The notes: a model not told the origin generated them from the sequence alone. A stretch of DNA of 32,000 bases from Paenibacillus naphthalenovorans (GCF_900099895.1 NZ_FNDY01000009.1:12025-44024); one strand, 5' to 3'; positions 6,200 to 32,000 are shown, counted from the stretch's first letter. Program-made: numbers and translations.

Positions 6200-6326
6200 C
6201 ACTTTCCTGCTTTCCCCCAAACTGATTTGATCTTCATTAATAATGTGGCATATTTTGATCATAAAAACAATTTGTGTTTCAAAGATGTCACATCATCATT
6301 AAGGATCGCAAAGTCAAAAATAATAT

Positions 6327-9536: not shown

Positions 9537-10569
9537 GATGCCCACCTCCGTCGGTGTTACTCTGTTCTTTCTGCTCTACAGGACTGGTTTCTTTGTTCCC
9601 GGGATTACCTTTGTTCCCGGTGTTATCTATGTTCCCTGCGTTCCCTTTGCCTTTGTTCTGATAATTATCTTCTTCCTCAAACACTTTGCCCTGATAACCG
9701 TGATACCTGTACAGCTCAGGATGGGTGTACGTCAAGGAATCGGGCTCCGCATGGTTAACCCATTCCAGATGCGTATTGGAAAAAGTCAATCGTCCCAAAT
9801 GAGTCGGTCTCAACAGCTCTTCATATTTTTCTTCCGTCAGCTTCGGAGCGGTATTGGCGACATCCTTTACCCATTGGTCAAAATCCTCTTGGGTTTGAGC
9901 CAACACCTCAAATTCCATATCCGCATATCCCCGGCCGTTGAAGTTGGTGTTCCGGCCTAAATACGAACCGGGATGATCCGCGACAAGATACAATTGCGTC
10001 TGCATTTTGCCCATCGTATATTTTTGTCCGCCTAAAGCCGGAACCCAGAAAGACTGCATGGTGCTGGCCGACGTTAATTTAAACAAAATAGGCGTATCCT
10101 CCGGTATATTGACATAGTTGACGGTCTCGATCCCCTGCTCCGGATAGCTGAAGATCCATTTCCAATCCGCCGAAGTGACATGAATCGTAATCGGCTTTTT
10201 TTCCTCATAGCCCTTGGGGACTTCCTCCAAATCATACAGCGTTGTTACCGTAGGGATCGTCAAGGCGACAACGATGAGGATCGGAATCGCGGTCCAAATG
10301 ACCTCCAGCAGCGTACTGCCGTGCTCCTCCGGCGGCTCATAATCTTTATTTTCAGGCCTCTCGCGATATTTCCACACAATATAACCGAACAGCCCGAACA
10401 CGACAACAACGACAAGCAGCATCCAAATCAATGACCAGTTAATCAGCTCCATAATGCTTCTGGCCACAGGTCCCTGGGGTTGAAAAACAACCAGATTCGG
10501 TTCGCAGCCGCTTAGCAGCACAACCAAAATGATTGCCAGTGGAGAAAATAGCAGCTTGCGGTAATTCAT
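9526..10569 (-). CDS. qoxA: Cytochrome aa3 quinol oxidase subunit II (lipoprotein) with a low-complexity C-terminal tail
   Basis: The signal ends in the lipobox LLSGC, followed by two TM helices. The cupredoxin-like domain has no CuA Cys pair, which indicates a quinol oxidase rather than a cytochrome c oxidase. First gene of the qoxABCD order. Confidence 0.9.
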   Translation of the reverse strand: MNYRKLLFSPLAIILVVLLSGCEPNLVVFQPQGPVARSIMELINWSLIWMLLVVVVVFGLFGYIVWKYRERPENKDYEPPEEHGSTLLEVIWTAIPILIVVALTIPTVTTLYDLEEVPKGYEEKKPITIHVTSADWKWIFSYPEQGIETVNYVNIPEDTPILFKLTSASTMQSFWVPALGGQKYTMGKMQTQLYLVADHPGSYLGRNTNFNGRGYADMEFEVLAQTQEDFDQWVKDVANTAPKLTEEKYEELLRPTHLGRLTFSNTHLEWVNHAEPDSLTYTHPELYRYHGYQGKVFEEEDNYQNKGKGNAGNIDNTGNKGNPGNKETSPVEQKEQSNTDGGGHHGH

Positions 10570-16089: not shown

Positions 16090-17271
16090 CTAACTGGGGA
16101 GAATATCCCTGTCAAAGATGGAGGTCGGTATCCAAAGGGTGCAGCAGGCATTCGGAACATCGACGATACCGCTGATCCGGCCTTCAACCGGGGCCGTACT
16201 GAGCAGCATGTAAGCTTGTTCGCCAGTTAAGCCCATTGTCGTTTTCAGATAGTCGATAGCGTTCAAGCACGCTCGGCGGTACGCGATGTGGGCGTCAAGG
16301 TAATGCTGCTCCCCCGTTGTCTCATGGACGGAAATGCCCTCAAATACGAGAAACTCCGAGTAATGAGGATCAACCGGCCCAGGCTTAAATACGGGATTTT
16401 CGATGATATTGTATTTGGCCATCCCTCCTTTGATGAGATCGACATGGAGATCCACCCAACCGGCCATTTCGATGCCGCCGCAGAAGGAGATCTCACCATC
16501 CCCTTGTGAAAAATGAAGATCGCCTAATGAAAGCTTGGCACCGTCAACGAAGACGGGGAAATAAATTCGCGTGCCCTTGGACAGATTTTTAATGTCACAG
16601 TTGCCGCCATGCTCCCGAGGCGGAACCGTACGCGCCGCTTCCCGGGCAATCCGGTTGAATTTCTGCCCCTTCAGCGAGCCGAGTACAGCGCTATCCGGTG
16701 AAGGCAGGTTAGCTAATCCGGGCACTCGGTCAGGATTCTTAGCAACAAGCTCCTTTTCCCGTTTGTTCCATTTATCCAGCAAGGCATGGGAAGGGGCGGT
16801 TCCGATTAATCCGGGATGTAAAATTCCGGCAAACTTAACGCCCGGTATATGGCGGGAGGTAGCGTAAATCCCGTGGAAATCCCATATCGATTTTGCCGCA
16901 TCAGGGTAATGATCCGTCAGAAACCCGCCGCCGTTTTGCTTGGCAAAAATGCCGTTAAATCCCCATTGCGACTCCGCAAAGGTACCTATATCCAGAATGT
17001 CCACAACAAGCAAATCTCCCGGCTCCGCACCGTTGACCCAGACCGGTCCGCTTAACACGTGTACGCGATGCAAATTCACATCCCGAATATCAGACGGATC
17101 GTCGTTGTTCTGAATTTGACCATCCGTCCAGTCTTTGCACTCCATACGAAATTCCGTTCCCGGATTGACTGACACGGTGGCCGGGATATCGGGATGCCAG
17201 CGGTTATGCCCGGGAGTCTCCTGCTCCTCCATCGGTTTGTTTAAATCTACACGAAACAATACATCAGCCAT
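16090..17271 (-). CDS. fmdA: Formamidase / acetamidase (FmdA_AmdA family)
   Basis: A 393-aa protein. The N-terminus ...PGHNRWHPDIPA...ECKDWTDGQI...VHVLSGPVWVNGAEPGDLLVVDILDIG is characteristic of the acetamidase/formamidase family. TAAGGAGGAG Shine-Dalgarno. Confidence 0.85.
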   Translation of the reverse strand: MADVLFRVDLNKPMEEQETPGHNRWHPDIPATVSVNPGTEFRMECKDWTDGQIQNNDDPSDIRDVNLHRVHVLSGPVWVNGAEPGDLLVVDILDIGTFAESQWGFNGIFAKQNGGGFLTDHYPDAAKSIWDFHGIYATSRHIPGVKFAGILHPGLIGTAPSHALLDKWNKREKELVAKNPDRVPGLANLPSPDSAVLGSLKGQKFNRIAREAARTVPPREHGGNCDIKNLSKGTRIYFPVFVDGAKLSLGDLHFSQGDGEISFCGGIEMAGWVDLHVDLIKGGMAKYNIIENPVFKPGPVDPHYSEFLVFEGISVHETTGEQHYLDAHIAYRRACLNAIDYLKTTMGLTGEQAYMLLSTAPVEGRISGIVDVPNACCTLWIPTSIFDRDILPS

Positions 17272-17445: not shown

Positions 17446-18492
17446 TTATTTCTGTCCAATCAAATTTGTTTTTTCGTTAGGAAGTCCTTCGATTGGACAT
17501 TCTTCGGTTCCAATGGTTGATCTAGTGATCGCTTCTACTTGTTCACGGGCTTTTACAGGGTCGGATACCCATGTTTTATAGAATTCGAACGGGCATTCCG
17601 CAACCCCTTTGTCTCCTTCTCCGGAATGAATGATCCCTGTATATCCTCTGTGCAGAAGTTTAAAGAGATGGTTTTGAGATTGAGCCGTTTTCCTGAAATC
17701 CCGGATCTGGGACATCGAGATCTCTGCATATTGAATACCATTTTCTTCGGTACCGCACTCTCCCAGCGTACGGCCGTCAAAGCCAATGATCGATGAATGG
17801 CCAAAATAAGAATATACTCCATCAAATCCGGAAGCATTGGCTACGGCTACATAGGTGTTGTTAGCCCAAGCCATGGACTTGGCGATCAAAATTTGTTGTT
17901 CTTTGGCAGGATACATATATCCCTGGCATCTTACGATGAGTTCCGCTCCCTTTACGGCACAATCACGCCAAATTTCCGGATAATTTCCATCATCGCAAAC
18001 AATTAAACTGACCTTAAGCCCTTTAGGTCCCTCGCTTACATAGGTCTTATCTCCAGGGTACCAGCCCTCGATCGGAGTCCACGGTATAATTTTTCTATAC
18101 TTTTGGACAATCTCTCCCTTGTTGTTCATAAGAATAAGTGTATTGTACGGTCTTTTATTCGGATGCTCTTCGTGTCTTTCTCCTGTTAATGAGAACACTC
18201 CCCATACATTGGCTTTTCTGCAAGCTTCCGCAAAGATTGCCGTTTCTTCGCCGGGAATCATCGATGCCGTTTCATACATTTCTTTCTCGTCATACATAAT
18301 GCCATGCGTGCTGTATTCCGGAAAAATGACAAGATCCATACCGGGCAAGCCCTGCTTCATACCAACGATCATTTCTGCGATTTTCTTGCAATTCTCCAAT
18401 ACCTCAGATCGGGTATGCAAACGCGGCATTTTGTAATTCACAACCGCTACCCCTACTGTGTCATGACTGCTGGAAATATCCCCATGTCTCAT
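17446..18492 (-). CDS. amiE: Aliphatic amidase (nitrilase superfamily)
   Basis: A 348-aa protein. [24 protein letters not shown]..., FPEYS (Glu), KIIPW (Lys) and [14 protein letters not shown] (Cys) match AmiE of Pseudomonas, Helicobacter and Geobacillus. Confidence 0.9.
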
Positions 18493-18572: not shown

Positions 18573-20921
18573 TCATTTCAAAAGCTCTTCAAAGGAAAAG
18601 CTGTCCCGTTCAAGTTTTGTTCGGGTAAGAAGCTGAACGGCATTCCATGCTTCATCAAGCGACTGTACCCACACCACATGAATCGTCGGAGGAACCTCGA
18701 TATGCTTGTTGGCAAGCGGGGCAAGTATCGTGCGAATGCCTCCATGCTTGGCGGTCAGCATTTTCCGACCAAAAAAGGCGCATTCTCCGACCATTCCCGC
18801 GACATTCAAACTTCCGCATACCGCTATATCCTCGGGTATGAAAACCCCGTGTTTAGCCGACAACGCCGATAGGGCCATGGCCAGGGTAAAGTCCTCCGTC
18901 CTTTCGCCGGCTGCCGCACCCTCGGTTTCAAAATAATACCGGCCCGATAAGCAATAACGATTCAAGGCTGCTTCTATAGGCAGCACATTCCATTCCCCAG
19001 ACTCCATTTGAGGTACTCTGATTTCGACTTCTGCAGCGGGAACAACGGCAGTCCAGATCTGTATGATTTGACCGGCGGTTTCCTTATAATTCGACAGGAC
19101 TTTGATCTTGCCCGGGGATGGCTGACGAAGCAAAGGCTTTAATCCGTTTCGTTCACGCCATACCCTCTGTTCTTCAATAGAGCGGGAAAAATGTCCGGCT
19201 CTCTTCACATGTTCCGCAAGCACAAGCGCTGCTCCTGACTGTACGGCCAAATCCCCGGCCGAACGGATCCGCCCGCCCAATTCACGGAATCGGGTGGACA
19301 AACGGTCGGGACATTCCGCTATTCGCCTCGCACACTCGATCACGGCCTCGACGGCCTCCCGTGTAAAATGCGGAATTTTGCCATCCCTTCGAATTTCCTG
19401 GGCGACAAACAAAGCCAGCTTATACCGGTTCTCCTCCGTATCCGACATCGTCTCATTCATATAGACCTCGTACCCATAACCGCGGATTCTTGACCGCAAT
19501 GCGGGATGGATCTTGTCGACATCAGGCACATTTCCGGCAATCACCATCACAAAATCACTGGGAACGGGCTCCGTGCGAACCATGGTTCCGCTGGAACCGG
19601 GGGAACGCCCGGTAATGGCCAGCTTCTTTTCCTGAAACGCCGTAAGCAAAGCCTGCTGCGATTCTAACGAGAGCATCGCGACCTCATCGATGAACAGCAC
19701 ACCTTTATGGGCAAGATGAATGGCTCCAGGCTCAACCAAGTGATGGGGCTTGGATTCCAAGCCGCCGGATTGATACGGGTCATGGCGAACATCTCCAAGC
19801 AGCGCTCCTGCATGCAGTCCCGTTGCATCGATAAATGGCGCTTTAACCTTGCCGGAGTTATTCACCAGATAGTTGGGAATTTGCTCCGAAGGCTTAGCCT
19901 TCAGCGATTTTGCAAACCAAACGATCATGACCGTCAGAATCAGGCTGCCCATGATGTAGACGGGATTTTCCCTGGTATAAGCATAAAAGGCACCCACAAT
20001 CAACGTAACGGCCCCGGCAAAGCCTAATATCCAGCGCAGAGAAGAAACATTCGTCCGAAATTCCCGTTCCCGCTGCCTGACTACCGCTTCTCCATGTCCC
20101 GCCGACAAGACCTTTACCTTGGGCATGTTGTTCGCTTTTCCCCTTGCCTCCACGATGATGTCCTCTAAGTTGGAGGCCGGCAAAAGCTCAGCCATCGCCT
20201 GCCCCAGCATACTTTTACCCGTTCCGGGTTCGCCGATGAGCAAAACCGACCGTTTTTGCCGTGCCGCCAGCCGAATGATGGCTACGGCTTCATCCTGGCC
20301 AACCACTTGATCGATCAAACGGCTGGCAACGGGGAGATCGGCAGTTGTCTTGAAATCCATGGCGGGTACAGGGAACGGTTCCTCTTCGAGTAAATGAGGA
20401 GAGAGATAGCGTTCGAACAAGGCTTTTACTTTCGGCGAAGCATCCCTGCCCATGGGTTTGACCAACGGCAGCAGCCGCTTGCGCAAAACAGGATTTTGCA
20501 ACAAAGGGATTAACGTCATGGCGGCCGTCTGGCGGACTTCAGCCGAATCATCGTGAAAGGCGCTTTCCCAAAAACGCCACACCCGATCAAAATCTGCCTC
20601 CATAGCCGAGACCATTCCCTTTGCCGTTGCCTCTCTTACATAAAGGTGTTTATCCGCCGCAAGCCGCATCCAGATCCGGATCACTTCTTCCGCTTCATCA
20701 TCCAGAAAACGGCCGATTTCCCTCCCCACAACATAACGAAGCACCCAGCGCGGATCATTGGCAAAATGGCGCAGCGTTTGGTACAATTGGCCCCGTTTTT
20801 CCTGATAACGGATGAATGATGAAATGGTATGTTCCAGCTGCGCGACTTTTCGTGCTTTAGCAAATCGGTCCATGACAGCAGCAAACAGATGATTGACGAA
20901 ATCGCCCACGGGTAAAACCAC
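18573..20921 (-). CDS. LonB-architecture AAA+ protein with a HEAT-like N-terminal domain, a TM hairpin inserted in the ATPase, and a Lon-protease-like C-domain lacking an obvious catalytic Ser motif
   Basis: Walker A is LLIGEPGTGKS. Two hydrophobic helices follow (WILGFAGAVTLIVGAFYAY and IMGSLILTVMIVWFA), then Walker B VLFIDEV, as in archaeal-type LonB. The N-terminal ~190 aa have HEAT-like VRxxAA repeats. The C-domain aligns with the Lon S16 domain. The start is uncertain: GTG 20921, or GTG 20909 after AAGGTGG. Confidence 0.7.
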   Translation of the reverse strand: MVLPVGDFVNHLFAAVMDRFAKARKVAQLEHTISSFIRYQEKRGQLYQTLRHFANDPRWVLRYVVGREIGRFLDDEAEEVIRIWMRLAADKHLYVREATAKGMVSAMEADFDRVWRFWESAFHDDSAEVRQTAAMTLIPLLQNPVLRKRLLPLVKPMGRDASPKVKALFERYLSPHLLEEEPFPVPAMDFKTTADLPVASRLIDQVVGQDEAVAIIRLAARQKRSVLLIGEPGTGKSMLGQAMAELLPASNLEDIIVEARGKANNMPKVKVLSAGHGEAVVRQREREFRTNVSSLRWILGFAGAVTLIVGAFYAYTRENPVYIMGSLILTVMIVWFAKSLKAKPSEQIPNYLVNNSGKVKAPFIDATGLHAGALLGDVRHDPYQSGGLESKPHHLVEPGAIHLAHKGVLFIDEVAMLSLESQQALLTAFQEKKLAITGRSPGSSGTMVRTEPVPSDFVMVIAGNVPDVDKIHPALRSRIRGYGYEVYMNETMSDTEENRYKLALFVAQEIRRDGKIPHFTREAVEAVIECARRIAECPDRLSTRFRELGGRIRSAGDLAVQSGAALVLAEHVKRAGHFSRSIEEQRVWRERNGLKPLLRQPSPGKIKVLSNYKETAGQIIQIWTAVVPAAEVEIRVPQMESGEWNVLPIEAALNRYCLSGRYYFETEGAAAGERTEDFTLAMALSALSAKHGVFIPEDIAVCGSLNVAGMVGECAFFGRKMLTAKHGGIRTILAPLANKHIEVPPTIHVVWVQSLDEAWNAVQLLTRTKLERDSFSFEELLK

Positions 20922-20922
20922 C

Positions 20923-21114
20923 TTAATGGCAGGGAATAAACATTAACGCATGCCGCAATTCATGGAGCGCATCATGGACGGGAGCATATCCGGATAAGAG
21001 TGCGGTATAAAGCACCATCCCGGCCAAGAAGGCAACGGCGGTCAATTGTGCCGGAAGGGACAAAAATACCTTTTCGAAGGCATGCTTCTTTTCATGCGTG
21101 TAGCTCTGTGACAT
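20923..21114 (-). CDS. cbtB: CbtB-like small membrane protein (putative cobalt/metal transporter subunit)
   Basis: A 63-aa protein with a single TM helix. The C-terminus VHDALHELRHALMFIPCH matches the CbtB family ending (H..AHD.RH...FPCH) as I recall it. AAAGGAGGGG Shine-Dalgarno. Confidence 0.55.
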   Translation of the reverse strand: MSQSYTHEKKHAFEKVFLSLPAQLTAVAFLAGMVLYTALLSGYAPVHDALHELRHALMFIPCH

Positions 21115-21613
21115 GGGAATCCCCTCCTTTGGATAAACGTTGGGCTTTCCATATGGCGGATAAGCCTACACCCGCTGCCATCCCGATGGCAATCGTCGCC
21201 AGCAGAAAAATCATGGTTTTGATTTTGACCGACATCGGAGGATGAAACGCCTCCACTCCCACGGTTGTTTTCTTTTCAGCCAGCACGGAACCATTCGCCG
21301 GATGGATCGCCTGAACGGTTATTTCATGTTCGGTGCCGTCGAAAAATTGCATCCCGAATTTATAGCTGCCATCATTCGAGCGATTTTGGAGAGACAGGAT
21401 GTGCGCCCCATCTTCGAGTTTGACGGCCTGAAAACGAACTTCAACGGGGTCACTGCCGATATGATCAAAGGTGCCTTCCAAATAAAAGAGTTGACCGACC
21501 CGGGCATGATGCTCGCTCGCATGTGTCTCTTGGGATTCATGGGCGAGGACGGTTGCAGACATGAGCATCATCAATAAAACGGAACTCAAACCGAACCAAT
21601 GCCTACGCCGCAT
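21092..21613 (-). CDS. Signal-peptide protein with a His-rich N-terminal segment, a beta-rich domain and a C-terminal TM anchor
   Basis: The preferred start is ATG 21613, after GAAGGAGGGG. MRRRHWFGLSSVLLMMLMSATVLA is a signal peptide, followed by HESQETHASEHHA. The C-terminal anchor is MIFLLATIAIGMAAGVGLSAIW. The architecture matches the upstream neighbour. Confidence 0.5.
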   Translation of the reverse strand: MRRRHWFGLSSVLLMMLMSATVLAHESQETHASEHHARVGQLFYLEGTFDHIGSDPVEVRFQAVKLEDGAHILSLQNRSNDGSYKFGMQFFDGTEHEITVQAIHPANGSVLAEKKTTVGVEAFHPPMSVKIKTMIFLLATIAIGMAAGVGLSAIWKAQRLSKGGDSHVTELHA

Positions 21614-22118
21614 GGATACCCCTCCTTCTTCTCGATAGTCCAAAACCGGCGAGCAATCCGAAGAATGCTAACATCGCCATGAAGATCAAAGCATTTTGAA
21701 CCTCTTTGGGATTTTCCTCAATGGTGACGGCAAATTGACGACTGCCTTCAGGATGACCGTTCTCATCGAACCATTCGACCGATAAAGGATACTCCCCGCG
21801 AATCGGAAACATATATTGAAACGACGCCTTTCCATCCCGGATGGCCACCGTAGAATCGATTAATTCCGTCCCTTCCACCCAAGGAAAATCGGTTGAGACA
21901 AACTTCTTCTCCGGACTCCGCAGGCGAATATGCGCTGAACCGTCCCGAATGGCCGGTATGCTCAGTTCTACTGTGGCATTATCCAAATCCGGACGAACCG
22001 CTCCCGCCGGTCCATTTTTCACTTCTACATTGACTTCCTGCTCTGCAAATGCCGATGATAAGGAAATCATTCCAACCGCCAGCACCGCCAGGCATCCCAC
22101 GATTAAGCCTTTTTTCAT
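21603..22118 (-). CDS. Signal-peptide protein with a beta-rich extracytoplasmic domain and a C-terminal TM anchor
   Basis: MKKGLIVGCLAVLAVGMISLSSAFA is a signal peptide. The C-terminal anchor is ALIFMAMLAFFGLLAGFGLS followed by RRRR. I recognise no family. It is similar in layout to the 21092-21613 product. Confidence 0.5.
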   Translation of the reverse strand: MKKGLIVGCLAVLAVGMISLSSAFAEQEVNVEVKNGPAGAVRPDLDNATVELSIPAIRDGSAHIRLRSPEKKFVSTDFPWVEGTELIDSTVAIRDGKASFQYMFPIRGEYPLSVEWFDENGHPEGSRQFAVTIEENPKEVQNALIFMAMLAFFGLLAGFGLSRRRRGIHAA

Positions 22119-22232
22119 CCGCCTCAGCCCCTATAAGTCATGATTTGAGTGACATCATTAGAAAGAGAACTAGCCCATTACAGTGGCGGAACCGTTCAAC
22201 ATTTGCGCCTGATCCCCCGTTATGCAGCTTTC

Positions 22233-24338
22233 TCATTCAACACGCTCGCAAGCGATCTCCCGGAGTCTGGCTGCAGCTTGGTCGGCGCCCACAGGCTGCT
22301 CGCAGGCAAACCCCCGGCAAAGATAAACGGTCGTTCGCCCGTTTTGCAGCCGGTACTCCTTTAACCAGGGGATGGCCTCCGCCATGCGCTCGCCCTCCGC
22401 GTCCGCGGGCTTTGCAATCCACACGGCCCGGGGCAAAAACAGCGAACGCACCTCTGCCAGCAGCCTCTCTTGCTCCGGATCTTCCCGCTCGCCGACCACC
22501 ACGACCTCCTGGGATGGCCCGAGAGCGATATCCCAAGCCGATAAGAGAAAGGTGTGAGCTGCGGGGAACCGTTCCACCTCCCCGGCCAAGGCCTTCAATT
22601 GCGCATCCGCCCTCTCTTCCCACCGCGTATTCCCGGTCATCCGGGCGAGCCACAACATATCCATTGCAAAGACAGCGTTGCCGGACGGCATCATCCCGTC
22701 ATGACTTACCTTCGGCCGGGCCCAAAGAGACTCCGCGTCCGAACCGGTCAGAAAACAACCGCCGCTCTCGTCATCCCAGAAAAGCCCCCAGACATCTTCC
22801 GCCAGCTCCTCCGCCTTTACAACCCATTCCACCTCCCCGGACGCCTGATAAAGCTCAAGAAGCCCCCAGATATAAAAGGCATAGTCGTCCAAATAGCCGG
22901 GAATCCCTGCATCGCCGTCCCGATACCGGGCCAACAGTCGACCGTCGTTCCGACGCATCGCCTTCCACAGCCACGAGGCCGCACGGCAAGCCGCCGACAG
23001 ATACCGGGGATCGCCCAACACCCGGTACCCCCGCGAAAAGGCGGCGATCATCAATCCGTTCCAGGCCGTGAGGATTTTGTCGTCCTTGTGCGGGCGCTCC
23101 CGCCCCTCGCGTGCCTCCCACAGCTTCCGCCGCGCTTGTTCCATCCGCTCCTCCAGGACTTCCGGCGCCAGCCCGAATTCCCGCGCCACCGCCTCCGAAT
23201 CCGTGTCGATCGTGTGAAGCACCGAAGTGCCGCGCTCAAAATTCCCCTCCTCGGTCACGCCGTAATACCGGCAGGCCATCCGGCCCGCCTCCTCTCCCAG
23301 CACGCGGCAGATATCATCCGGCGTCCAAACATAAAACTGGCCCTCCTTGCCCTCTGTATCGGCATCCTCCGCCGAATAAAACCCTCCTTCCGGGCTCGTC
23401 ATGTCCCGCAGCACATAGCTGAAAATCTCCTGTGCTACCTGAGCCCAACGGGACGTTCCTGCCGCCTGATACCCTTCCAAATAGGCCAGCGCCAATAGGG
23501 CGTTATCATAGAGCATCTTCTCAAAATGCGGGATCAGCCACAGCTTGTCGGTGGCGTAACGGGAAAATCCGTAGCCCAGATGGTCATAAATGCCTCCCCG
23601 CCACATTCCCCGCAGATTGCCCTCCACCATGTTCAATGCATCCTCACGCCCGGTTCTGGCGTAAAACCGGAGCAGAAACATCAACTCGTGGGGACGCGGA
23701 AATTTCGGCGCCCCGCCGAACCCGCCGTAAGTCTCGTCATACCTAGAACGAACGTAATCGAAGGCCAAAGCCATCGCCCCGGTGTTTACCTCTCCGCGAG
23801 CCGCCGGATGCATCCCCGTGGTCAGCTTGCGCACAACGTCACGACCGGTCTGCCGCAGGCGATCCCGATCGGTCTTCCACAGGTCGGCCGTCCTCTGCAG
23901 CAGATCCATTAACCCATGCCGCCCGTGCCGGCTCTGTTTCGGAAAATAGGTCCCGCTGAAAAAAGGTTCCTTCTCCGGGGTCATGAACACGGTCAAAGGC
24001 CAGCCTCCCTGCCCGGTCATCCCCTGGCATACTCTCATATAGAGATGGTCCACGTCCGGCCGTTCCTCCCGGTCCACTTTGATCGACACGAAATGGCGGT
24101 TGAGCAGCTCCGCCACCTCCGGGTCTTCGAAGGACTCCCGCTCCATCACGTGACACCAGTGGCACGTACTGTACCCGATGCTGAGGAAAACGGGCCGATC
24201 CTCATCCTTCGCCTTCTCAAAGGCCTCTTCCCCCCATGGATACCAATCTACGGGGTTATGCGCATGCTGCAGCAGATACGGGCTTTTTTCACGAATCAAG
24301 GGGTTCGTGTACCGGTGTTTGCGGCTGTCTTGAGCCAT
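22233..24338 (-). CDS. YyaL/SPATA20-type thioredoxin-domain protein (COG1331, DUF255 plus a six-hairpin domain)
   Basis: [58 protein letters not shown] is the hallmark N-terminus of this family. GGGAGGTGG Shine-Dalgarno. Confidence 0.85.
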
Positions 24339-24451
24339 CTTGGTCTGCCACCTCCCTGAACGCTTTTCTTATATTCCGGCACCCGCTTGCCAAAAGAGCC
24401 ATGTCTTCCACCAAAGCGAAGACGGAGCTTATCGATCCGGACAGCGGTCCT

Positions 24452-25456
24452 TCATTCGCTGGACACAACGCATTGGGCAAAGCCCTGCATAAACTTATCC
24501 CGGTCCAGATTGCGCCCGATGACCACGTACTCGCTATGCCGGGGTTCTTCCGGCTCCCGGTTCTCTTCCCGGCGCAGAGACGTCAGCATACGCACACTCT
24601 GGAAGACCAGCCGCTCCGAATATCCCCGGGCCCGGAAGATGCCTTTTGTACGATAGACATCCTCGCCGTGTTCCAGAAGAACCCCGTTGAACCATTCCAT
24701 GAACCGGTTCATATCGACGGGACGGTCCGTCCGCAGAACAAAAGACGCCACTTCATCGTCGTGCTCGTGTTCCACATCGTCCAAAAACGCGGGATCGACC
24801 TCCAGCTTGGCGGCCAACTCGAAGGCGCTGACCCCGAGAATCTTGTCGAGTTCGATATTCGCGAATTGAGTGTGATACAGTCTGGCCATCGGATTAAGGG
24901 CTCGGATCCGCTGTTCCACGCGCTCTAATTGGGGTTTCGGCACCAGATCGGTCTTGTTCAGCAGGATGATGTCGGCGAAGGCCGACTGTTCCCGGGCCTC
25001 GACGCTGTCTTCCAAATTGCGCTCCAGGTTGACTGCGTCGGCTACCGTAATAAACGAGTCCAGTTGAAACCGGGACTTGATCTCATCGACAATAAAGAAC
25101 GCAGAAGCGACCGGGGCGGGGTCCGCCAGACCCGTCGTTTCGATCAACACGGCATCGAGTTCGGAGCGCCGGGCCAGATCCGTCAGGGTCCGGACCAGGT
25201 CCTCCCGAACGGTACAACACAGACAACCGTTATTAAATTCCACCAGCTCCTCGTTATCCTCGGTGACCACCAGCTGTCCATCTATGCTGATCTCACCGAA
25301 CTCATTGACGATAACCGCCACTTTGTACCCGTGCCGACCATGCAGGATATGATTGAGAAGGGTTGTTTTTCCCGACCCCAGGAATCCCGTCACTACGGTA
25401 ACCGGAATCCGCTCCGGTGAATATAGCTGTTGTACCATTATCGCCACCGCCTCCAT
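24452..25456 (-). CDS. CobW/COG0523 (G3E family) GTPase metallochaperone
   Basis: The P-loop is VVTGFLGSGKTTLLNHIL. The metal-binding motif is NGCLCCTVREDL. An acidic/His stretch reads VEHEHDDEV. An alternative start is ATG 25438. Confidence 0.85.
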   Translation of the reverse strand: MEAVAIMVQQLYSPERIPVTVVTGFLGSGKTTLLNHILHGRHGYKVAVIVNEFGEISIDGQLVVTEDNEELVEFNNGCLCCTVREDLVRTLTDLARRSELDAVLIETTGLADPAPVASAFFIVDEIKSRFQLDSFITVADAVNLERNLEDSVEAREQSAFADIILLNKTDLVPKPQLERVEQRIRALNPMARLYHTQFANIELDKILGVSAFELAAKLEVDPAFLDDVEHEHDDEVASFVLRTDRPVDMNRFMEWFNGVLLEHGEDVYRTKGIFRARGYSERLVFQSVRMLTSLRREENREPEEPRHSEYVVIGRNLDRDKFMQGFAQCVVSSE

Positions 25457-25590
25457 TAGCTCATTAACTTGCCTCTATCCGCCGCCACGACGCTTCCCCA
25501 AGCGGAATGGAGGATAAGCGCCGGACACGCGGGCGGCATAGGTTAGCCGCCTGCGTATCCAGCCGTTTCGGTTTACATCTCCCTGTGGGG

Positions 25591-27240
25591 CTAAGGGGTA
25601 GGAACCACCGTCTTGGCCATGGCCGCAATGCCCTGCTGCAGAATCTCCCTGCGGGTTGCCGGCGGAAGGACGTCGCCCTGCAATTGATCGTAAGGCACGG
25701 CAACCCAACTGTCGTCGCCCCACAGGCGCTCCCCCGCCATATCTTTCATCTGGCTGGATCGCTCCGACAGCAGAACGCCCAAGTCCAGCAGCCACGAGTG
25801 ATTAAGCAGCTTTTCCTCCCTTGCCGCATTGGCGTACCGCTTGCGGGACTCCCAGAACAGACGCAGGTCTGTCTTCGCAAGACCTGGCAGAAGGATGTCA
25901 AGATAGCTGGTCAAGTGATCGAAAAATTCATGATGAAAAGTCCGCAATGTGGCTTCATCCGAGTCGAGGAGGTGCTTGTTCATCGTATCCGCCAGCTTTC
26001 GGTCCACGGACTCATTCCATACGTATCGCGGCGCGTGAATATGGACCTCGGCGTAATCCGTCTTGAACCCTTCCACTAGCCCCGACCATTCTTCCGTATG
26101 GTCAAGCCAGTCGGATAAGATCTGACGCCACTTGTTAAGCGGCTCACCCGGCAGTACCTGCACCCCGGGATGGGTCAGCTTGGCTAGATTGTAAAGCGTA
26201 AAATTCCGGGCCTTCGAACTGACGGTTTCGTGCGGCGCCCCCGTGAATCCGCACGGACGCAGAGCCCTGAATAAAGTCCGCCCCGAGTCGTGAGCGGCAA
26301 AGCGTACGAAGGAGTCGGCCAGAAACTTGTTGGTCACCTGCAGCCGCAGCCCTTGCCGCACCGCCGGCACGCCCAAGTCTGTATACCGGCTGATTCGCTG
26401 CCAGACGTGCTCCATATTGGCTACGAAGAAGCCTCCGGTGAAAGGGTTGGCGTACAAGTCTCCCCACACTTGCGTGACGCCTTTATTCTTGTCATCGTCA
26501 ATCATGCAGTCGAGCTCGTTAAGGGTGGCGAATAGGCTCGCACCCCGGTACTTCTCGTCGTCGGCGCTGCACGGCATCACGCCAACGCCAATGACAGGCA
26601 CACGCCGGCCGAAGTGAACCGTAGAGAGGTGCCGTGCCAAATCTACAGCGATTCCGCTGCCGGTGCCGCCTCCCATGGAAAAGCAGACCAGCACCATCGA
26701 CGGCAACCGCGTCTGGTCCACACTCTGGACGAAGTCCTTCAGCTCCCGCTTAAGAAGCTGCGGACCATCATAGTAGTTTTTACCGTAAATGGCTTTGGCC
26801 AATGCCCTCGGAAAATGCTCGCCGGGCTTAGGAATCTCGATGTTATCCGGAAGCCAGGGTTCGTAGTCGGGATTCCAATCATACCGGAGAAATTCGCGCT
26901 TGAGAAATTCAGGATAGCGCGCCAGCGAGCCGAATAATTCCTCTTTGCTTGGTACCTCGAGCGAAACCGTGCGGATACGGGCGCGATCCCGCGGAATGTT
27001 GCGCTCCTCCAGGCGTTCCAGAAAGCCTTGGGCATAGTCCCGGGCCCGAACCATGTCCTGCTCGCCGATATCGATGGCCAGCGCCGAAAAACGGGCGCGG
27101 GGATCCTCCAGAAGATCCTCGACCTCCCCCTCGCGCAGCATCGCGTCCACAAAACCTACCCCCGTTCGACCGATTCCCACGACGTGTATGCTGTGAGGGG
27201 ACTGCATACCGGAAGCACTGTGATACATTGAAAAACTCAT
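25591..27240 (-). CDS. Tubulin/FtsZ-signature protein, paralog B (549 aa)
   Basis: An exact GGGTGSG signature is encoded at 26653-26673. An N-terminal glycine loop HVVGIGRTGVGFV precedes it. KPGEHFPRALAKAIYG is T3-like. VIGVGVMPCSADDEKYRGASLFATLNELDCM parallels FtsZ VGVVT.PF.FEG..R. The protein aligns with the 27687-29192 product. The functional call is an inference. Confidence 0.6.
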   Translation of the reverse strand: MSFSMYHSASGMQSPHSIHVVGIGRTGVGFVDAMLREGEVEDLLEDPRARFSALAIDIGEQDMVRARDYAQGFLERLEERNIPRDRARIRTVSLEVPSKEELFGSLARYPEFLKREFLRYDWNPDYEPWLPDNIEIPKPGEHFPRALAKAIYGKNYYDGPQLLKRELKDFVQSVDQTRLPSMVLVCFSMGGGTGSGIAVDLARHLSTVHFGRRVPVIGVGVMPCSADDEKYRGASLFATLNELDCMIDDDKNKGVTQVWGDLYANPFTGGFFVANMEHVWQRISRYTDLGVPAVRQGLRLQVTNKFLADSFVRFAAHDSGRTLFRALRPCGFTGAPHETVSSKARNFTLYNLAKLTHPGVQVLPGEPLNKWRQILSDWLDHTEEWSGLVEGFKTDYAEVHIHAPRYVWNESVDRKLADTMNKHLLDSDEATLRTFHHEFFDHLTSYLDILLPGLAKTDLRLFWESRKRYANAAREEKLLNHSWLLDLGVLLSERSSQMKDMAGERLWGDDSWVAVPYDQLQGDVLPPATRREILQQGIAAMAKTVVPTP

Positions 27241-27243
27241 CGT

Positions 27244-27288
27244 TTAACCTCTCCTTTCGTTCCTGTGGTACAGCGTTGAGAAACTCAT
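27244..27288 (-). CDS. Candidate 14-codon upstream ORF that duplicates the 5' end of the following gene
   Basis: ATGAGTTTCTCAACGCTGTACCACAGG... encodes MSFSTLYHRNERRG, with AGGAG 10 nt upstream. The stop TAA lies 3 nt before the main ATG. The main gene begins ATGAGTTTTTCAATGTATCACAG (MSFSMYH). Confidence 0.3.
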   Translation of the reverse strand: MSFSTLYHRNERRG

Positions 27289-27337
27289 GATTTCGCATCT
27301 CCTGTCCATTGGCGAACGGGCGGCAGCTTTCGTTGTC

Positions 27338-27673
27338 TCAGCACCACGCGCTCCTGGAGGTAAAGCCCGTATCCTCATCGAGAAACCCGAGGTCGTGAAG
27401 GATATGGGCAGCGGAGGTCGCACGGTCATCCACGATGTACACCCGGTAATCCTCAACAAACAGGCCCGGATCTCTTGAAATGACGCCTTCCTCGATTAAC
27501 CTCACGCCTTCCTCCAGGTGGCTGCGCTTCACAGCGGATGTCCACAGGGGGGTTCGAATGTAAATTTGTTCATCGTCCACGCCCGTCACCTGCAGCGTCT
27601 TCCTCCCCGCGACGGTGGGAACCTGGGCTCCCTTGCCGTACTTTTGCTTCACCAACGACCAGTTTAGCGGCAT
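27338..27673 (-). CDS. 111-aa orphan protein between the two tubulin-like genes
   Basis: The track ORF 27338-27892 overlaps the upstream gene. The real start is probably ATG 27673, 8 nt after TAAGGAGG, whose TAA is the upstream stop. The translation is MPLNWSLVKQKYGKGAQVPTVAGRKTLQVTGVDDEQIYIRT... I recognise no family. Confidence 0.6.
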   Translation of the reverse strand: MPLNWSLVKQKYGKGAQVPTVAGRKTLQVTGVDDEQIYIRTPLWTSAVKRSHLEEGVRLIEEGVISRDPGLFVEDYRVYIVDDRATSAAHILHDLGFLDEDTGFTSRSAWC

Positions 27674-27686
27674 GGCAGATACCTCC

Positions 27687-29192
27687 TTACAAGATGGCCT
27701 GGGGCAATTCTTCTCCCCGAATGGCTTCGTAGGGCACGACAATCCAGCAGGCGCAGCCCCAAAGACACTCACCGGCCATGCCTTCAAACCGCAGCGCCGG
27801 CTCGCACAGGAGCACCCCCAGGTCCAATAGCCAGGAATGAACCATGAGCTTATCTGTCCATGACAGCTGATCGTAGTCTTTCCGGGCGGCATGGAAGACC
27901 TGCAGATCCGTTTTCCTGACCCTCGGAAGCACGTACTGAACGAACGTGCCGCCCTTGCTCTTCGACCGCACCATTTCCGGCGGGTTCACAGGCGCGAAGA
28001 CTTCGTTTAGCTTTCCGGCGACAGCGGCCAGTTCACTATCCAGATTCGCACCCTCCGGGGCAGCCACCCGCATTTCCAGAAAATCCGCCTTGTAACTATC
28101 CTTCAAGCCCAGTTGAGAGGCCGATACCCCTTTTTCCGGATCTCCATATCCAAGCACGTGTATCCAGCGCTCGCCATATTGCGTGCGTGCTGCCGCGTGT
28201 TGGGTTGGCGGCGCCCCGATCCAGTTGAGCAGACGGAGCGTTTCCCAGAGGTCGGTACCCTTATTCCGGGTAAGGAAACTGGCGATTTCCCGGTCTACCC
28301 GCTGGTGGGTTGCCTGAAGATTCCCGGTGCTTTCCCAAGCCGGCTGCTGCGGCACCATAATAAACCCGGCGGTAAAGGGGTTTCGATACAGGTCGCCCCA
28401 AACCTGAATAACCCCTTCGTTCTTATCCTGATCCAGCATGCAATCCAGCTCATTGAGCGCCGGAAAGAGCTGGCTGCCGCGAACTTCTTCGGGATCGCCT
28501 TCGCACGGCGCAATGCCTACACCCAGCACAAGGCTGCGGCGTCCGAACCGGACGTTGGACAAATGGCGGGCAAGATCCACTACGATACCGCTGCCTGTAC
28601 CGCCGCCCAGTCCAAATACAACGCACACGACAGATTTACTGTCGGCGGCCTCCACGCTCTGCGCAAAGAGGTTGAGTTCTTCCAGCAGGGGCCGTGACTC
28701 ATTGTAATAGCCATGTCCATAAATAGCCTTGGCCAATGCCCGCGGAACGTGCTCTCCGGGCTTGGGCATCTCGATGTCCGCCGGAAGCCAGGGTTCATAG
28801 TTGGGATTCCAGTAATACCGTGGATATTCCAGCTTCAGATACTCCCGATAGCGGCGCAGCATGGCAAAAAGTTCGTCCCGGGAGGGAACCTGCAGGGCGC
28901 ATGTCCGCACCTGCACCTGGTCTTGCGGCAGCTTGCCGGCCAGTTCCCGGATGGGCGCCAGGTTCTCGTCACTTGTGTCGACAGCCAGAGCCGTAAAGCG
29001 TACACGACTGTCTTCAAGCAAGTCGTCGACGCCATCATGGAGCATCTCCCCGATGACGTCGGCGCCGGCCTTACCCAGGCCGATGACATGTACGGCTACG
29101 GGAGTAGAGTCCTCCTTGGCAATCCGGTGAAAGCCGCGCTTGAGCGCATCGAATCGCCGCTTCTCTACTTGAGAGATTTGTCGTTTTTCCAT
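27687..29192 (-). CDS. Tubulin/FtsZ-signature protein, paralog A (501 aa)
   Basis: An exact GGGTGSG signature is encoded at 28587-28607. An N-terminal glycine loop HVIGLGKAGADVIGEML precedes it. KPGEHVPRALAKAIYG is T3-like. VLGVGIAPCEGDPEEVRGSQLFPALNELDCM parallels the FtsZ S5/T5/H5 region. AGGAGGAG Shine-Dalgarno. First gene after the sigma-54 promoter. Confidence 0.6.
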   Translation of the reverse strand: MEKRQISQVEKRRFDALKRGFHRIAKEDSTPVAVHVIGLGKAGADVIGEMLHDGVDDLLEDSRVRFTALAVDTSDENLAPIRELAGKLPQDQVQVRTCALQVPSRDELFAMLRRYREYLKLEYPRYYWNPNYEPWLPADIEMPKPGEHVPRALAKAIYGHGYYNESRPLLEELNLFAQSVEAADSKSVVCVVFGLGGGTGSGIVVDLARHLSNVRFGRRSLVLGVGIAPCEGDPEEVRGSQLFPALNELDCMLDQDKNEGVIQVWGDLYRNPFTAGFIMVPQQPAWESTGNLQATHQRVDREIASFLTRNKGTDLWETLRLLNWIGAPPTQHAAARTQYGERWIHVLGYGDPEKGVSASQLGLKDSYKADFLEMRVAAPEGANLDSELAAVAGKLNEVFAPVNPPEMVRSKSKGGTFVQYVLPRVRKTDLQVFHAARKDYDQLSWTDKLMVHSWLLDLGVLLCEPALRFEGMAGECLWGCACWIVVPYEAIRGEELPQAIL

Positions 29193-29388: not shown

Positions 29389-29404
29389 AGCAATTTTCAT
29401 GCCA
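29389..29404 (-). promoter_or_regulatory. Sigma-54 (-24/-12) promoter
   Basis: The minus strand reads TGGCATGAAAATTGCT. This has the GG and GC elements at the canonical spacing (consensus TGGCAC-N5-TTGCW). It lies about 197 nt upstream of ATG 29192 and faces away from a sigma-54 activator gene. Confidence 0.7.
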
Positions 29405-29706: not shown

Positions 29707-32000
29707 ATGGACACAAAGGGTAAGGAACTAAAGGTTGGCATTCTATTCTCCCTCACAGGGCCTACGAGCATAACAGAGCGGGGCCAATGCCAGGCCAGTT
29801 TGCTGGCGATCAGACAAATCAATGAACAAGGCGGTATTCATGGCAAGCGGCTGGTCCCTATCGTTGAAGATATTGCGTCCGATCCTTACCTTGCAGCGCA
29901 AAAAGCGGAAAAATTAATCTTGTCGGACCAAGTCATCGCCATTATCGGATTATATACCTCTGCTTGCCGTAAAATGGTCATTCCCGTTTTGGAAAAATAT
30001 GATAGACTGCTTTTTTATCCAACCCTATACGAAGGAGCGGAACAACACCGGAACATCTTCTACTGCGGTCCACTTCCCAATCAACAGCTGCTTCACTTCA
30101 TCCCCTGGATTATCACCCACTTGGGCAAAACGTTTTATTTAATCGGTTCGGATTATATATACCCAAGGGAAACCAACCGGTATATCAGAAACTTGGTCCA
30201 AAGCTATGGAGGCACCATATTGGATGAAAAATATGTCGGCTTGGGCGATCAAAAATTCAGTCCGCATATGCAGCAAATCCGCCGGATCAATCCGGATGTC
30301 ATCTTTTCGACTCTCGTTGGAAACAGTGCAGGCGCTTTTTATCAACAGCACCATCAATACGCTTTAAAACAGCACATTGCCAGCTCCATTACGGCCGAAA
30401 CCGAAATTACCGCCATCCAGCCTTCCTATACGGTCGGTCTTTTTTCAAGCTTCCCTTACTTTAATACGGTTGAAAACCCGGTCAATCAACAGTTTGTCGC
30501 GGAATATCGCCGCACTTACGGTACAGATACGATAAGCTCCGTTATGGAAAACGCCTATAACTCTGTTTTTTTGCTGGCAAAAGCACTACGCAGCACCCGG
30601 ACGGTTTCCACCGACGCGATCCGTCGTTCATTATCCGGTCTCGCTCTCGAAGCGCCGCAAGGCCAAATTATAGTCGATGAGAAAAATCAGCATTTATGGT
30701 TGAACTCGCGAATAGGCCGGGTCGATGAAAAATGCCGGTTTCAAATTGTGTGGGAATCCGATTCCCCCCTGCCCCCCGTTCCGTTTTTTGAAATAGAGGA
30801 AAAGAAAACGAAAACCGTTCCGAACGAGCTGCCCAAGGACATGCTGGAGAAACGGCTAACCCGGAATGAATTTCTTTTGAAAGAGTTAAAAAAGGCTACC
30901 CATTTCTATCCTTTTACTTTTGCTTTTTTTGATTCCGAAGGCGTTCTGTTGGATGTATTCCAAAACGGAGCGTCAAAGCATTCGGCAGCCGTTCCGCAGC
31001 TGAAAATCGGCAGCAGCAATTGGATACGCCATCCGCTTAACAAATCAGGCATTGGCCTCGCCCTGACTGGACATACGCTGTCTTATGCATGCTCGGATGA
31101 GCACGAAATACAGGAACTTCAAGATTGGATTACCACAGGGCTGCCCGTGAAAAGTAAATCAGATTCCAGCCGCATGGGGGTACTCGGTGTCTTTATACAT
31201 AAAAACAAGGAAAATGCCATCCCTTTCCTGCTTGAGAGCATGTCCCGTTTAGCGGCCTATTGCGCCGAGCTTACCCATAAACACAACGATTACCTTTCCT
31301 TATCCACGATTCTGCAGGACATATCCGGTCAGCTTTCCAAAAGCTTGTTCGTACTCAAACAGGGGAAAATCCTGTTCCATAATGCATCGGCACAGGATTT
31401 GCTTGCAAGAAAAGGGGATCTTGTGCACATGTCGCTGGCGGAAATCTCATCGGACAACCGGGAAGAGGCCAACTATATCATGAGGACGGAAGACTCCGAC
31501 AGCTTATTCGAAATCGAAATCACCAAAAGCCTCGATTGTCACTATGTTTATTTTAAGCAGCTGGCCCACCGCACTTCCGCCGGTCGAAAGGATAAAACCA
31601 AAATGACGACAAAGGATCTTATCGGTTCCAATGAACATTTTCTTCGAACCGTATCATTGGCCAAATCCGCTTCCAAAACCAACGCGAACGTACTGCTTCT
31701 CGGAGAAAGCGGAACCGGCAAAGAGTTGTTTGCACGCGCCATTCATAATGAAAGTTCAAGAAAGGAAAAGCCCTTTGTGGCTATTAACTGCGCCGCCATT
31801 CCAAAAGAGCTTATCAACGCCGAGCTATTCGGATATATGGAGGGGGCTTTTACCGGGGCGAAAAAAGGGGGAAATCCCGGCAAATTTGAAGCCGCGAACG
31901 GAGGAACTCTATTTCTTGATGAAATAGGAGACATGCCTTTTGAACTTCAGGCTACTCTGCTGCGTGTTCTTCAAGAGAAAGAGGTGATCCGGGTAGGAGG
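29707..32000 (+). CDS. AmiC-like amide-sensor domain fused to a sigma-54-dependent transcriptional activator (3' end outside the window)
   Basis: I translated this by hand from ATG 29707 to nt 32000 and found no stop. It is absent from the supplied ORF track. The N-terminal ~360 aa ([36 protein letters not shown]...[12 protein letters not shown]...[12 protein letters not shown]) align with P. aeruginosa AmiC. The C-terminal part has the bEBP AAA+ motifs [25 protein letters not shown] and [10 protein letters not shown]. Confidence 0.85.

Follow-up and report, generated by a model that had tools for sequence, protein, structure and literature searches.

A tubulin-superfamily protein pair and its small partner in a cobalt- and amide-linked bacterial gene cluster: a possible metalloenzyme complex

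In a 32,000-nucleotide stretch of DNA from Paenibacillus naphthalenovorans (GCF_900099895.1, NZ_FNDY01000009.1:12025-44024; hereafter the window, with positions counted from its first letter), two paralogous tubulin-like proteins, here termed TubA and TubB, are encoded on either side of a gene for a small protein. Their likeness to tubulin was already known and is flagged by database annotation: NCBI lists TubA and TubB as "tubulin-like doman-containing protein" and the small protein as "hypothetical". What is new is that they represent a family of the tubulin superfamily with a new partner and a metabolic, cobalt-linked context. To our knowledge, every member of the tubulin/FtsZ superfamily that has been studied is a GTPase that forms filaments, and a wiring into cobalt delivery and amide catabolism would widen the known uses of the tubulin fold. 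The reading that we favour, tentatively and as somewhat short of an even chance, is that TubA, the small protein and TubB form a cobalt-dependent heterotrimeric enzyme complex of nitrile/amide metabolism on a tubulin scaffold, and not a cytoskeleton. The analysis shows the fold, the paralogy, the fixed order of the three genes, the genes that accompany them and how motifs are conserved and lost; that the proteins form a complex, that cobalt is the ligand, that a cysteine triad holds the metal, what reaction takes place and any part played by GTP are what we infer. The three genes are arranged as follows:

27687..29192, minus strand: TubA, tubulin-superfamily protein of 501 amino acids (Pfam Tubulin and Tubulin_2, AlphaFold2 model, Foldseek)
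27338..27673, minus strand: small subunit of 111 amino acids with a tail ending in Cys (homologs and AlphaFold2 model)
25591..27240, minus strand: TubB, TubA paralog of 549 amino acids (40% identity to TubA; Pfam Tubulin)

At the level of fold and superfamily, TubA and TubB belong to the tubulin/FtsZ superfamily, as an initial annotation of this DNA had proposed. Both pass the Pfam Tubulin profile (PF00091) marginally and in the T3-T5 region (TubB 35.4 bits, TubA 34.8 bits, cut-off 33). TubA also passes Tubulin_2 (PF13809; 34.7 bits, cut-off 27), with TubB just below at 26.1 bits. The AlphaFold2 model of TubA, built with 74 homologs, has a predicted local distance difference test score (pLDDT) of 88.1 and a predicted template modelling score (pTM) of 0.92. 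A Foldseek comparison of this model with the PDB returned tubulin-superfamily members exclusively, led by CetZ2, CetZ and FtsZ and followed by gamma- and beta-tubulin; a non-tubulin fold, which the initial annotation had named as the finding that would speak against it, was not among the matches. The top matches have E values of 1.9e-12 to 1e-8, a probability of 1.00 and 400-500 aligned columns. Since the alignments span this length, TubA is predicted to have the complete two-domain tubulin/FtsZ architecture of a GTPase-type N-domain and a C-terminal domain. TubB probably shares the fold, judging from its 40% identity to TubA.

At the sequence level the family stands further apart. A sequence search of the PDB gave marginal local matches around GGGTGSG (CetZ, E 1e-3; Asgard tubulin, E 0.03), and a profile-profile alignment with a canonical Tubulin-Pfam protein aligned the T4 region and nothing else, so that the T5-T7 motifs were mapped from the secondary structure of the model only. 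A family profile searched against 1.84 billion representatives collected 215 clusters at 50% identity and did not reach FtsZ, CetZ or tubulin. The nearest sequence relatives beyond the family are Tubulin_2 proteins of ~880-916 amino acids in a different gene context. P0268 and about 12 similar Tubulin_2 proteins (~875-916 amino acids) form a separate group with an N-domain that is much closer to the TubA/TubB family (E down to 1e-60) than to generic Tubulin_2; the single locus of this group that was seen (L091, 2628-5261) is possibly archaeal, as it also holds another gene with a Tubulin-Pfam match, one for an fn3 protein and one with a weak similarity to SlaA. By analogy with the superfamily, TubA and TubB could possibly bind and hydrolyse GTP and polymerise head to tail.

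TubA and TubB are homologous over their full length (40% identity, E 2e-119). The initial annotation had aligned them over the first ~280 residues, which stands but understates the extent of the homology, and the C-terminal tail that it described as shared (HSWLLDLGVLL...MAGE.LWG..W..VPY) is real. More than 1000 TubA homologs exist, unnamed or recorded as "hypothetical protein" or "Tubulin like", with cross-phylum identities of 55-64%. A locus scan with one genome per species found 172 loci, 80 of which were fetched; gene order was examined in 83 loci, nitrile hydratase was looked for in 90, and gene contexts were counted in a non-redundant set of 51 loci with 8 kb or more of sequence to each side. 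The order TubA-small-TubB is fixed in nearly all of the 83 loci, which come from six phyla; this bears out the suggestion that these genes form a co-encoded heteropair with a small third gene and that the pair is conserved as neighbours. The single variation seen is in Pseudomonas corrugata, where cbtB-cbtA lie between the small gene and TubB (L086, 10536-11475) and the module is followed by CobW, AmiE, CbbQ, VWA, AmiC and AmiR. The two paralogs are old: as A-to-B identity (40-47%) is below A-to-A identity (50-64%), the duplication appears to be older than the spread of the module. Its hosts are Cyanobacteria, Alpha-, Beta- and Gammaproteobacteria, Actinomycetota, Thermoleophilia and Bacillota (including Alicyclobacillaceae); the proteobacterial hosts include sponge and lichen symbionts, and those in the Actinomycetota are Pseudonocardia and Actinomycetospora. 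The family is thus conserved and cross-phylum but, at 215 clusters, small. Conservation within the cluster is highest in the trio, and nothing else in it is invariant.

In some gammaproteobacterial metagenome-assembled genomes, a third, TubB-derived paralog of 418-463 amino acids lies a few kb downstream (L028 16312-17580, L029 16202-17557, L031 18536-19927, and also L034, L037 and L038). It ends before or within the C-terminal Cys block, has partly lost the WNPxYEPW insertion and has lost the D-C of LNELDCM.

Constraint is distributed unevenly over the two proteins. The T1 loop (GxGxxG) is invariant, with G38, G40 and G43 unchanged in 77 TubA sequences and the equivalent G22, G24 and G27 unchanged in TubB. 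The exact GGGTGSG of the T4 loop that had been read in both products was confirmed from the translations, at TubA residues 196-202 (nucleotides 28587-28607) and TubB residues 190-196 (nucleotides 26653-26673). Across the family, however, it varies. Most members keep GGGTGSG, and the variants GDGTGSG, GDSVGNG, GESTGSG, AGGVGSG and NGGTGSG also occur, so that the last Gly alone is invariant; some cyanobacteria carry Asp or Glu in T4 of both paralogs, for example GDSVGNG in one with GESTGSG in the other. Because the loop varies in this way, canonical GTP binding appears not to be the constrained core of the family.

The loop after helix H7, as placed by the model, is highly conserved, reading LNWVGAPPTQHAAAR in TubA and LRPxGFTGAPHE in TubB. 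Among the internal stretches of the TubA model, this loop alone has a pLDDT under 50, which would be expected of a loop that becomes ordered against a partner. In TubA, L322-N323-W324 after H7 are invariant, as are H332 and R336, and there is no conserved acid comparable to the catalytic one in the T7 motif NxDxxD/E, whereas the TubB loop contains the conserved acidic APHE. TubB orthologs also have a strictly conserved N-terminal peptide, S-(M/L)-Y-H-S-A-(S/T)-G-x-Q-(S/A)-P-H-C, within the first 16 residues and before strand S1, which has no equivalent in TubA.

The C-terminal block of ~40 residues, HSWLLDLGV.LSEPAIRF.GMAGEC.WGCACWVVVPY..IRG, is near-identical between TubA and TubB and across phyla. 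It contains a cysteine triad of the form C-x3-C-x-C (C476-x3-C480-x-C482 in TubA). Among the 69 pairs compared, both paralogs carry the triad in 56 and a single paralog does in the other 13, while none has lost it from both. The window pair is of the second kind: the triad is intact in TubA and degenerate in TubB (RLWGDDSW). Loss of the triad is accompanied by decay of the surrounding block. One intact and one degenerate copy would, by analogy, be typical of a pseudo-symmetric heteromer with an active and a degenerate site. The lack of double losses is not statistically strong, as losses are few and ~0.35 double losses would be expected by chance. That the triad might track CobW was considered and rejected, since the actinobacterial clade without CobW keeps it and some CobW-containing proteobacteria lack it in TubA. 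A profile of the C-terminal 73-residue motif found no match in the PDB or Pfam, and therefore sequence gives no support for a nitrile hydratase-like claw.

The small gene begins 13 nucleotides past the TubA stop and has GGAGG ahead of it. It had been described as an orphan, a view that cannot be kept given its 174 homologs with 58-86% identity, nearly all of exactly 108 amino acids. Its AlphaFold2 model (pLDDT 84) consists of a short helix, a four-stranded beta-barrel and three helices, and no PDB fold matched this model (best E 0.55). In most lineages the protein carries a tail of ~9 residues that finishes with Cys. This tail is present in all 50 loci with CobW and in none of the 17 loci without CobW; the split follows clades and may therefore go back to one event in evolution.

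The actinobacterial clade, which lacks the tail, instead encodes between one and three further paralogs of the small protein. Such extra copies near the module were seen in Actinomycetota, Thermoleophilia and one Burkholderiales locus (L059 14058-14357 and 14848-15207; L057 14088-14414; L043 12691-13436; L045 6111-7176), all without the Cys tail and in loci without CobW.

The trio stands at the head of an operon whose remaining genes point to metal handling and amide catabolism. The initial annotation had placed it at the head of a sigma-54 operon, and this is upheld by a -24/-12 match, TGGCATGAAAATTGCT, ~190 nucleotides upstream of TubA (the single match to TGGCAYN5TTGCW in the window, with 0.08 expected by chance), and by a divergent regulator gene that joins an AmiC-type amide-binding domain to a sigma-54 activator domain. 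The regulator runs past the end of the window; in a near-identical genome (L087) the full-length protein has 963 amino acids and includes HTH_8. The further features of the locus are:

29389..29404, minus strand: sigma-54 (-24/-12) promoter-like site TGGCATGAAAATTGCT, a consensus match upstream of TubA
29707..32000, plus strand: regulator with AmiC-type amide-binding and sigma-54 AAA+ domains (Peripla_BP_5 1e-115, Sigma54_activat 3e-52)
24452..25456, minus strand: CobW/COG0523 G3E metallochaperone GTPase (Pfam cobW 2e-59, CobW_C 6e-22)
22233..24338, minus strand: DUF255 (Thioredox_DsbH) thioredoxin-like protein with a CxxC motif (PF03190, 2.8e-79)
21603..22118, minus strand: open reading frame for a 171-amino-acid protein that combines a signal peptide with a C-terminal membrane anchor (no Pfam match)
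21092..21643, minus strand: open reading frame for a His-rich protein of 173-183 amino acids with a signal peptide and a C-terminal membrane anchor (a 173-amino-acid gene is annotated in L087)
20923..21114, minus strand: CbtB, predicted cobalt transporter subunit of 63 amino acids (from translation; the identical gene in L087-L090 has PF09489 CbtB)
18573..20921, minus strand: LonB-like AAA+ protein carrying HEAT repeats at its N terminus and an ATPase domain of the ChlI type (TIGR00764, 522 bits, cut-off 516.6)
17446..18492, minus strand: aliphatic amidase AmiE of the nitrilase superfamily (NF009802, 721 bits, cut-off 427)
16090..17271, minus strand: FmdA/AmdA-family formamidase/acetamidase (PF03069, 3.6e-186)

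The amidases, the G3E metallochaperone and the Lon-like ATPase of the initial annotation are confirmed as AmiE and FmdA, CobW and the LonB-like protein; the 63-residue CbtB (20923-21114) had been overlooked. CbtB ends in ...HELRHALMFIPCH, and its gene is flanked by those of the two anchored exported proteins on one side and of the LonB-like protein on the other. The LonB-like protein is also matched by Pfam Mg_chelatase, LonB_AAA-LID and HEAT. The 171-residue anchored protein (21603..22118), which has homologs in a few other loci, is possibly part of a metal uptake unit.

The same themes recur throughout the family. Among the 51 loci, the genes accompanying the module were:

CobW (COG0523): 38 loci, following TubB
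CbtA/CbtB or CbiM/CbiN transporter: 24 loci
CobW or a cobalt transporter: 41 loci
AmiE: 33 loci
FmdA/AmdA: 9 loci
Signature-family amidase: 7 loci
Any amidase: 41 loci
CbbQ-type AAA+ protein: 18 loci
VWA partner: 15 loci
LonB-like AAA+ protein: 2 loci
Thioredoxin-like [2Fe-2S] ferredoxin: 21 loci
DUF255 thioredoxin: 12 loci
AmiC-type binding protein or sensor: 29 loci
AmiR: 11 loci
MIP channel: 9 loci

The window's own selection from this repertoire is CobW, DUF255, the two anchored exported proteins, CbtB, the LonB-like AAA+ protein with HEAT repeats, AmiE and FmdA. Individual loci also hold urea/amide-type ABC transporter genes. AmiE was matched in 46 of the 83 loci, with a median identity of 79%; at L059, FmdA lies directly upstream of TubA and AmiE was not detected. 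As the amidase partners belong to up to three unrelated folds, the module is tied to amide chemistry and not to a particular protein. In 4 of the 90 loci (L047 6773-8513, minus strand; L058 19714-20364, plus strand; L053; L063), a canonical Co-type nitrile hydratase (VCTLCSCYPWP) is encoded no more than 10 kb away from the module; the others and the window do not have it. At L047, nitrile hydratase alpha and beta, a P14K-like activator and a signature amidase were all identified. No division or partition genes were seen beside the module in the loci whose genes were listed.

Comparing TubA and TubB with known members of the superfamily places them outside FtsZ, TubZ, CetZ, BtubAB, FtsZl1 and FtsZl2. 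The separation from these families had been suggested in the initial annotation, and it is now substantiated by family profiles, published definitions and gene context. The best structural match of the TubA model is CetZ (PDB 4b45, 4b46, 3zid), with an E value of 1.9e-12 over more than 430 columns, a TM score of 0.55-0.61 normalised to the target and an overall identity of 14%. The sequence match to CetZ (E 1e-3) spans GGGTGSG and helix H4, where LAKHL is aligned with LARHL. CetZ, however, is an archaeal protein encoded by a single gene; it lacks the WNPxYEPW insertion and the C-terminal Cys motif of TubA/TubB, and it has neither a small partner nor a cobalt or amide context.

Alpha/beta-tubulin and BtubA/BtubB(+BtubC) resemble our system in having two co-encoded paralogs and a third small gene. 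The H3 region of the TubA/TubB family, AKAIYGKAYYD, resembles AKGYYS of tubulin/AtubB, and the difference between TubA and TubB in the post-H7 loop is a further likeness to alpha/beta-tubulin and BtubAB. Nevertheless, neither protein matches Tubulin_C in Pfam, identity to eukaryote-type tubulin is only 10-13% in structural alignments, and we therefore rejected an assignment to eukaryote-type tubulin/BtubAB. Unlike BtubC, the third gene sits between the paralogs and does not encode a TPR protein, and unlike in tubulin/BtubAB, the signature loop is not invariant. FtsZ proper was rejected on the TIGR00065 scores (15.2 and 16.6 bits, cut-off 295.2) and the lack of an FtsZ_C match. TubZ/TubR was rejected as well: the small protein, a barrel with three helices, gave no winged helix-turn-helix match, and the loci are chromosomal metabolic clusters.

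The FtsZ-like families need a closer comparison. FtsZl1 proteins are ~1000 amino acids long, with a long coiled coil, a helical C-domain and no recognisable T6-H7 elements, and their operons also hold a VWA protein and a GTPase that is not COG0523 (Makarova & Koonin 2010, PMC2875224). TubA passes PF13809 and the nearest sequence relatives of the family are Tubulin_2 proteins, but at 501 and 549 amino acids, with no coiled coil, a complete tubulin C-terminal domain and another context, TubA and TubB are not FtsZl1; the OmpA, kinase and membrane-remodelling genes of the FtsZl1 context are absent from their loci. FtsZl2 (the PFL_1302 family) comprises single genes for proteins of ~722-735 amino acids with no conserved neighbours (PMC2875224). 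It is bacterial, shares the GGGTG(S/T)G motif and has a mixed alpha/beta C-terminal region, yet its N-terminal sequence, FPSVCLIGLGRCGSNIALDVA...KPVFLVEPLVMLGDLDKD, is unlike that of the TubA/TubB family. We rejected FtsZl2 on length, neighbourhood and N-terminal block, being set apart by the published descriptions. In the literature searched we found no paper on the TubA/TubB family, its partner gene or its context, and a survey of COG0523 (PMC2770081) makes no mention of the family.

The operon logic recalls that of another enzyme. Nitrile hydratase was rejected as a homolog, with no NHase_alpha or NHase_beta Pfam matches and no fold relationship, and it serves here as a functional analogy only. 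It shares a three-Cys motif ending in C-x-C, with C-(S/T)-L-C-S-C in its claw versus C-x3-C-x-C in TubA/TubB. Classical nitrile hydratase clusters (Rhodococcus, Bacillus RAPc8) contain a regulator resembling AmiC, a transporter for cobalt, an activator that is small or belongs to COG0523, and an amidase that varies. The TubA/TubB loci follow this logic in five components: amide-responsive regulation of the AmiC type, cobalt transport, an accessory protein that is small or belongs to COG0523, a core of two subunits, and an amidase whose family varies. We propose, on this analogy, that the module fills the operon slot taken in the classical clusters by nitrile hydratase alpha/beta and its activator.

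Our favoured reading of a cobalt-dependent enzyme complex would then work as follows. TubA, the small subunit and TubB would make up an obligate hetero-oligomer, probably with A and B joined head to tail in a tubulin-like dimer that the small subunit caps or bridges. Cobalt would be imported by CbtB (elsewhere by CbtAB or CbiMN) and delivered by CobW with GTP, and its loading would be aided by an AAA+ remodeller, LonB-like in the window and CbbQ with a VWA protein elsewhere. All genes around the trio serve either the supply and insertion of metal, redox helpers included, or the uptake, sensing and hydrolysis of amides. Since AmiE works with Cys-Glu-Lys and without a metal, the most plausible client of this cobalt machinery is the trio, with the Cys-rich block as the most plausible site for the metal, which would sit on the C-terminal G-M-A-G-E-C-x-W-G-C-A-C-W-V-V-V-P motif, the most conserved element, joined in the CobW clade by the Cys-ending tail of the small subunit. 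The complex might turn a small nitrile-type (or related) compound into an amide, which AmiE and/or FmdA would hydrolyse to the acid and ammonia, with the operon being switched on by the amide-sensing sigma-54 activator. The tubulin-style A-B contact, and possibly nucleotide binding, may have been kept for assembly or regulation. Nitrile-type hydration is the leading, though unproven, candidate reaction, suggested by analogy. A bolder version, which we regard as rather doubtful, is that the trio is the first catalytic, non-cytoskeletal branch of the tubulins: a heterotrimeric cobalt metalloenzyme with a C-x3-C-x-C claw that, in cyanobacteria, sponge and lichen symbionts, actinomycetes and bacilli, stands in for nitrile hydratase without being homologous to it, or carries out another amide-forming or amide-converting reaction. 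The trio could also turn out to be the client that a CobW/COG0523 subfamily serves, and it may point to an enzyme so far missing from nitrile/amide nitrogen scavenging in cyanobacteria and in sponge and lichen symbionts. The module is compact and inducible (by a sigma-54 or AmiC/AmiR switch) and occurs in cultivable Paenibacillus and Pseudomonas, which makes it directly testable.

Several observations weigh against a cobalt enzyme. We know of no tubulin-fold metalloenzyme, or indeed of any enzyme with this fold. The proteins with their C-terminal motif are unlike nitrile hydratase or anything else in the PDB or Pfam, and the triad, a candidate metal site by sequence, differs in spacing from the nitrile hydratase claw. 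CbtAB is itself a predicted cobalt transporter, and in the 4 of 90 loci with a nitrile hydratase the cobalt genes could serve that enzyme instead. Amide/urea-type uptake in many loci suggests that the amide is imported, in which case an upstream hydratase would be unneeded. Because the correlation of the tail with CobW and the pattern of triad retention follow clades, they represent few independent events. Finally, the invariant T1, the mostly kept GGGTGSG and the conserved post-H7 loop fit a nucleotide-dependent longitudinal contact.

The initial annotation had offered, among other options, that the proteins are subunits of an unknown enzyme or of a maturation machine, and this pair of options agrees best with the evidence. 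The second of them, a nucleotide-driven machine for maturation or metal trafficking that is not the final enzyme, we consider unlikely. Such a GTP-dependent platform would, together with CobW and the AAA+/VWA proteins, load or store cobalt for another enzyme, or activate the amidase. It would account for the chaperone-type genes around the module (CobW, CbbQ with VWA, the LonB-like AAA+ protein, DUF255), for the retention of T1 and most T4 motifs and for the canonical Co-type nitrile hydratase beside the module in 4 loci; AAA+, VWA, CobW and CbtAB proteins together are moreover the accessory set of the aerobic cobaltochelatase CobNST, which the neighbour set resembles. However, ~86 of the 90 loci encode no cobalt-requiring client, AmiE needs no metal, and the amidase partner switches between unrelated folds, which disfavours a protein-specific chaperone. 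The trio is also the most conserved and sole invariant part of the cluster, which is the usual mark of a client or enzyme and not of a helper. A chaperone dedicated to AmiE is likewise unlikely, as FmdA or a signature amidase is found in the same loci and sometimes replaces AmiE.

We think it quite improbable that TubA and TubB build a cytomotive or scaffolding filament, that is, an alpha/beta-tubulin-like heterodimer that polymerises with GTP, with the small protein as a BtubC- or TubR-like accessory, and that, once induced, organises membranes or the enzymes of amide catabolism. The heteropair itself, the invariant T1, the complete two-domain fold of the tubulin/FtsZ type in TubA and the fact that its best matches (CetZ, FtsZ and tubulin) form filaments would all suit this reading. 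So would the post-H7 loop, which is conserved yet of low confidence, as for an inter-subunit T7-like loop, and which has an acid (APHE) in TubB and none in TubA, recalling the asymmetry of alpha/beta-tubulin. The surroundings tell otherwise. In the loci whose genes were listed, the module has no division, partition, phage or membrane-remodelling genes beside it, and nothing about a cytoskeleton would explain its tight link to CobW and cobalt transport; the context of CobW, predicted cobalt transporters, AAA+/VWA proteins and amidases thus gives no backing to the cytomotive pair that the initial annotation had envisaged. In some lineages both paralogs have Asp or Glu in the signature loop while the remaining protein is conserved, the strongest constraint falls on a C-terminal Cys motif that is absent from all known cytomotive tubulins, and the small protein matches neither a TubR-like helix-turn-helix nor a BtubC-like TPR fold. 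Lower still we place an NTP-dependent enzyme that acts on the amide itself, such as an energy-coupled lyase, carboxylase, reductase or transferase of formamide, acetamide or urea-like compounds, in which GTP hydrolysis in the tubulin pocket drives chemistry at a Cys-ligated metal or Fe-S site. The uptake and sensing genes that accompany the module would make the amide available as a substrate, the [2Fe-2S] ferredoxin gene in 21 of the 51 loci hints at redox chemistry, and the nucleotide motifs are mostly kept. Yet T4 has degenerated in some lineages, and the loci of Bacillota, Cyanobacteria and Actinomycetota lack the ferredoxin. Such an enzyme would also be without precedent, and none of the candidate reactions finds support in a neighbouring gene.

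The window is 99.86% identical to Paenibacillus naphthalenovorans CP013652.1. The GC content of the block from DUF255 to TubA (22000-29000) is 57-61%, compared with 42-47% on the regulator/promoter side and 46-53% on the amidase/Lon side. Being above both flanks, it suggests that the tubulin-like/CobW block was horizontally acquired and inserted into an amidase operon. The closest relative is an Alicyclobacillaceae metagenome-assembled genome with ~80% identity in DNA. Elsewhere in the window, on the minus strand, the haem-copper oxidase genes COX2, COX1 and COX3 (6965-10569) and a barnase-type ribonuclease gene (5765-6262) appear unrelated to the trio.

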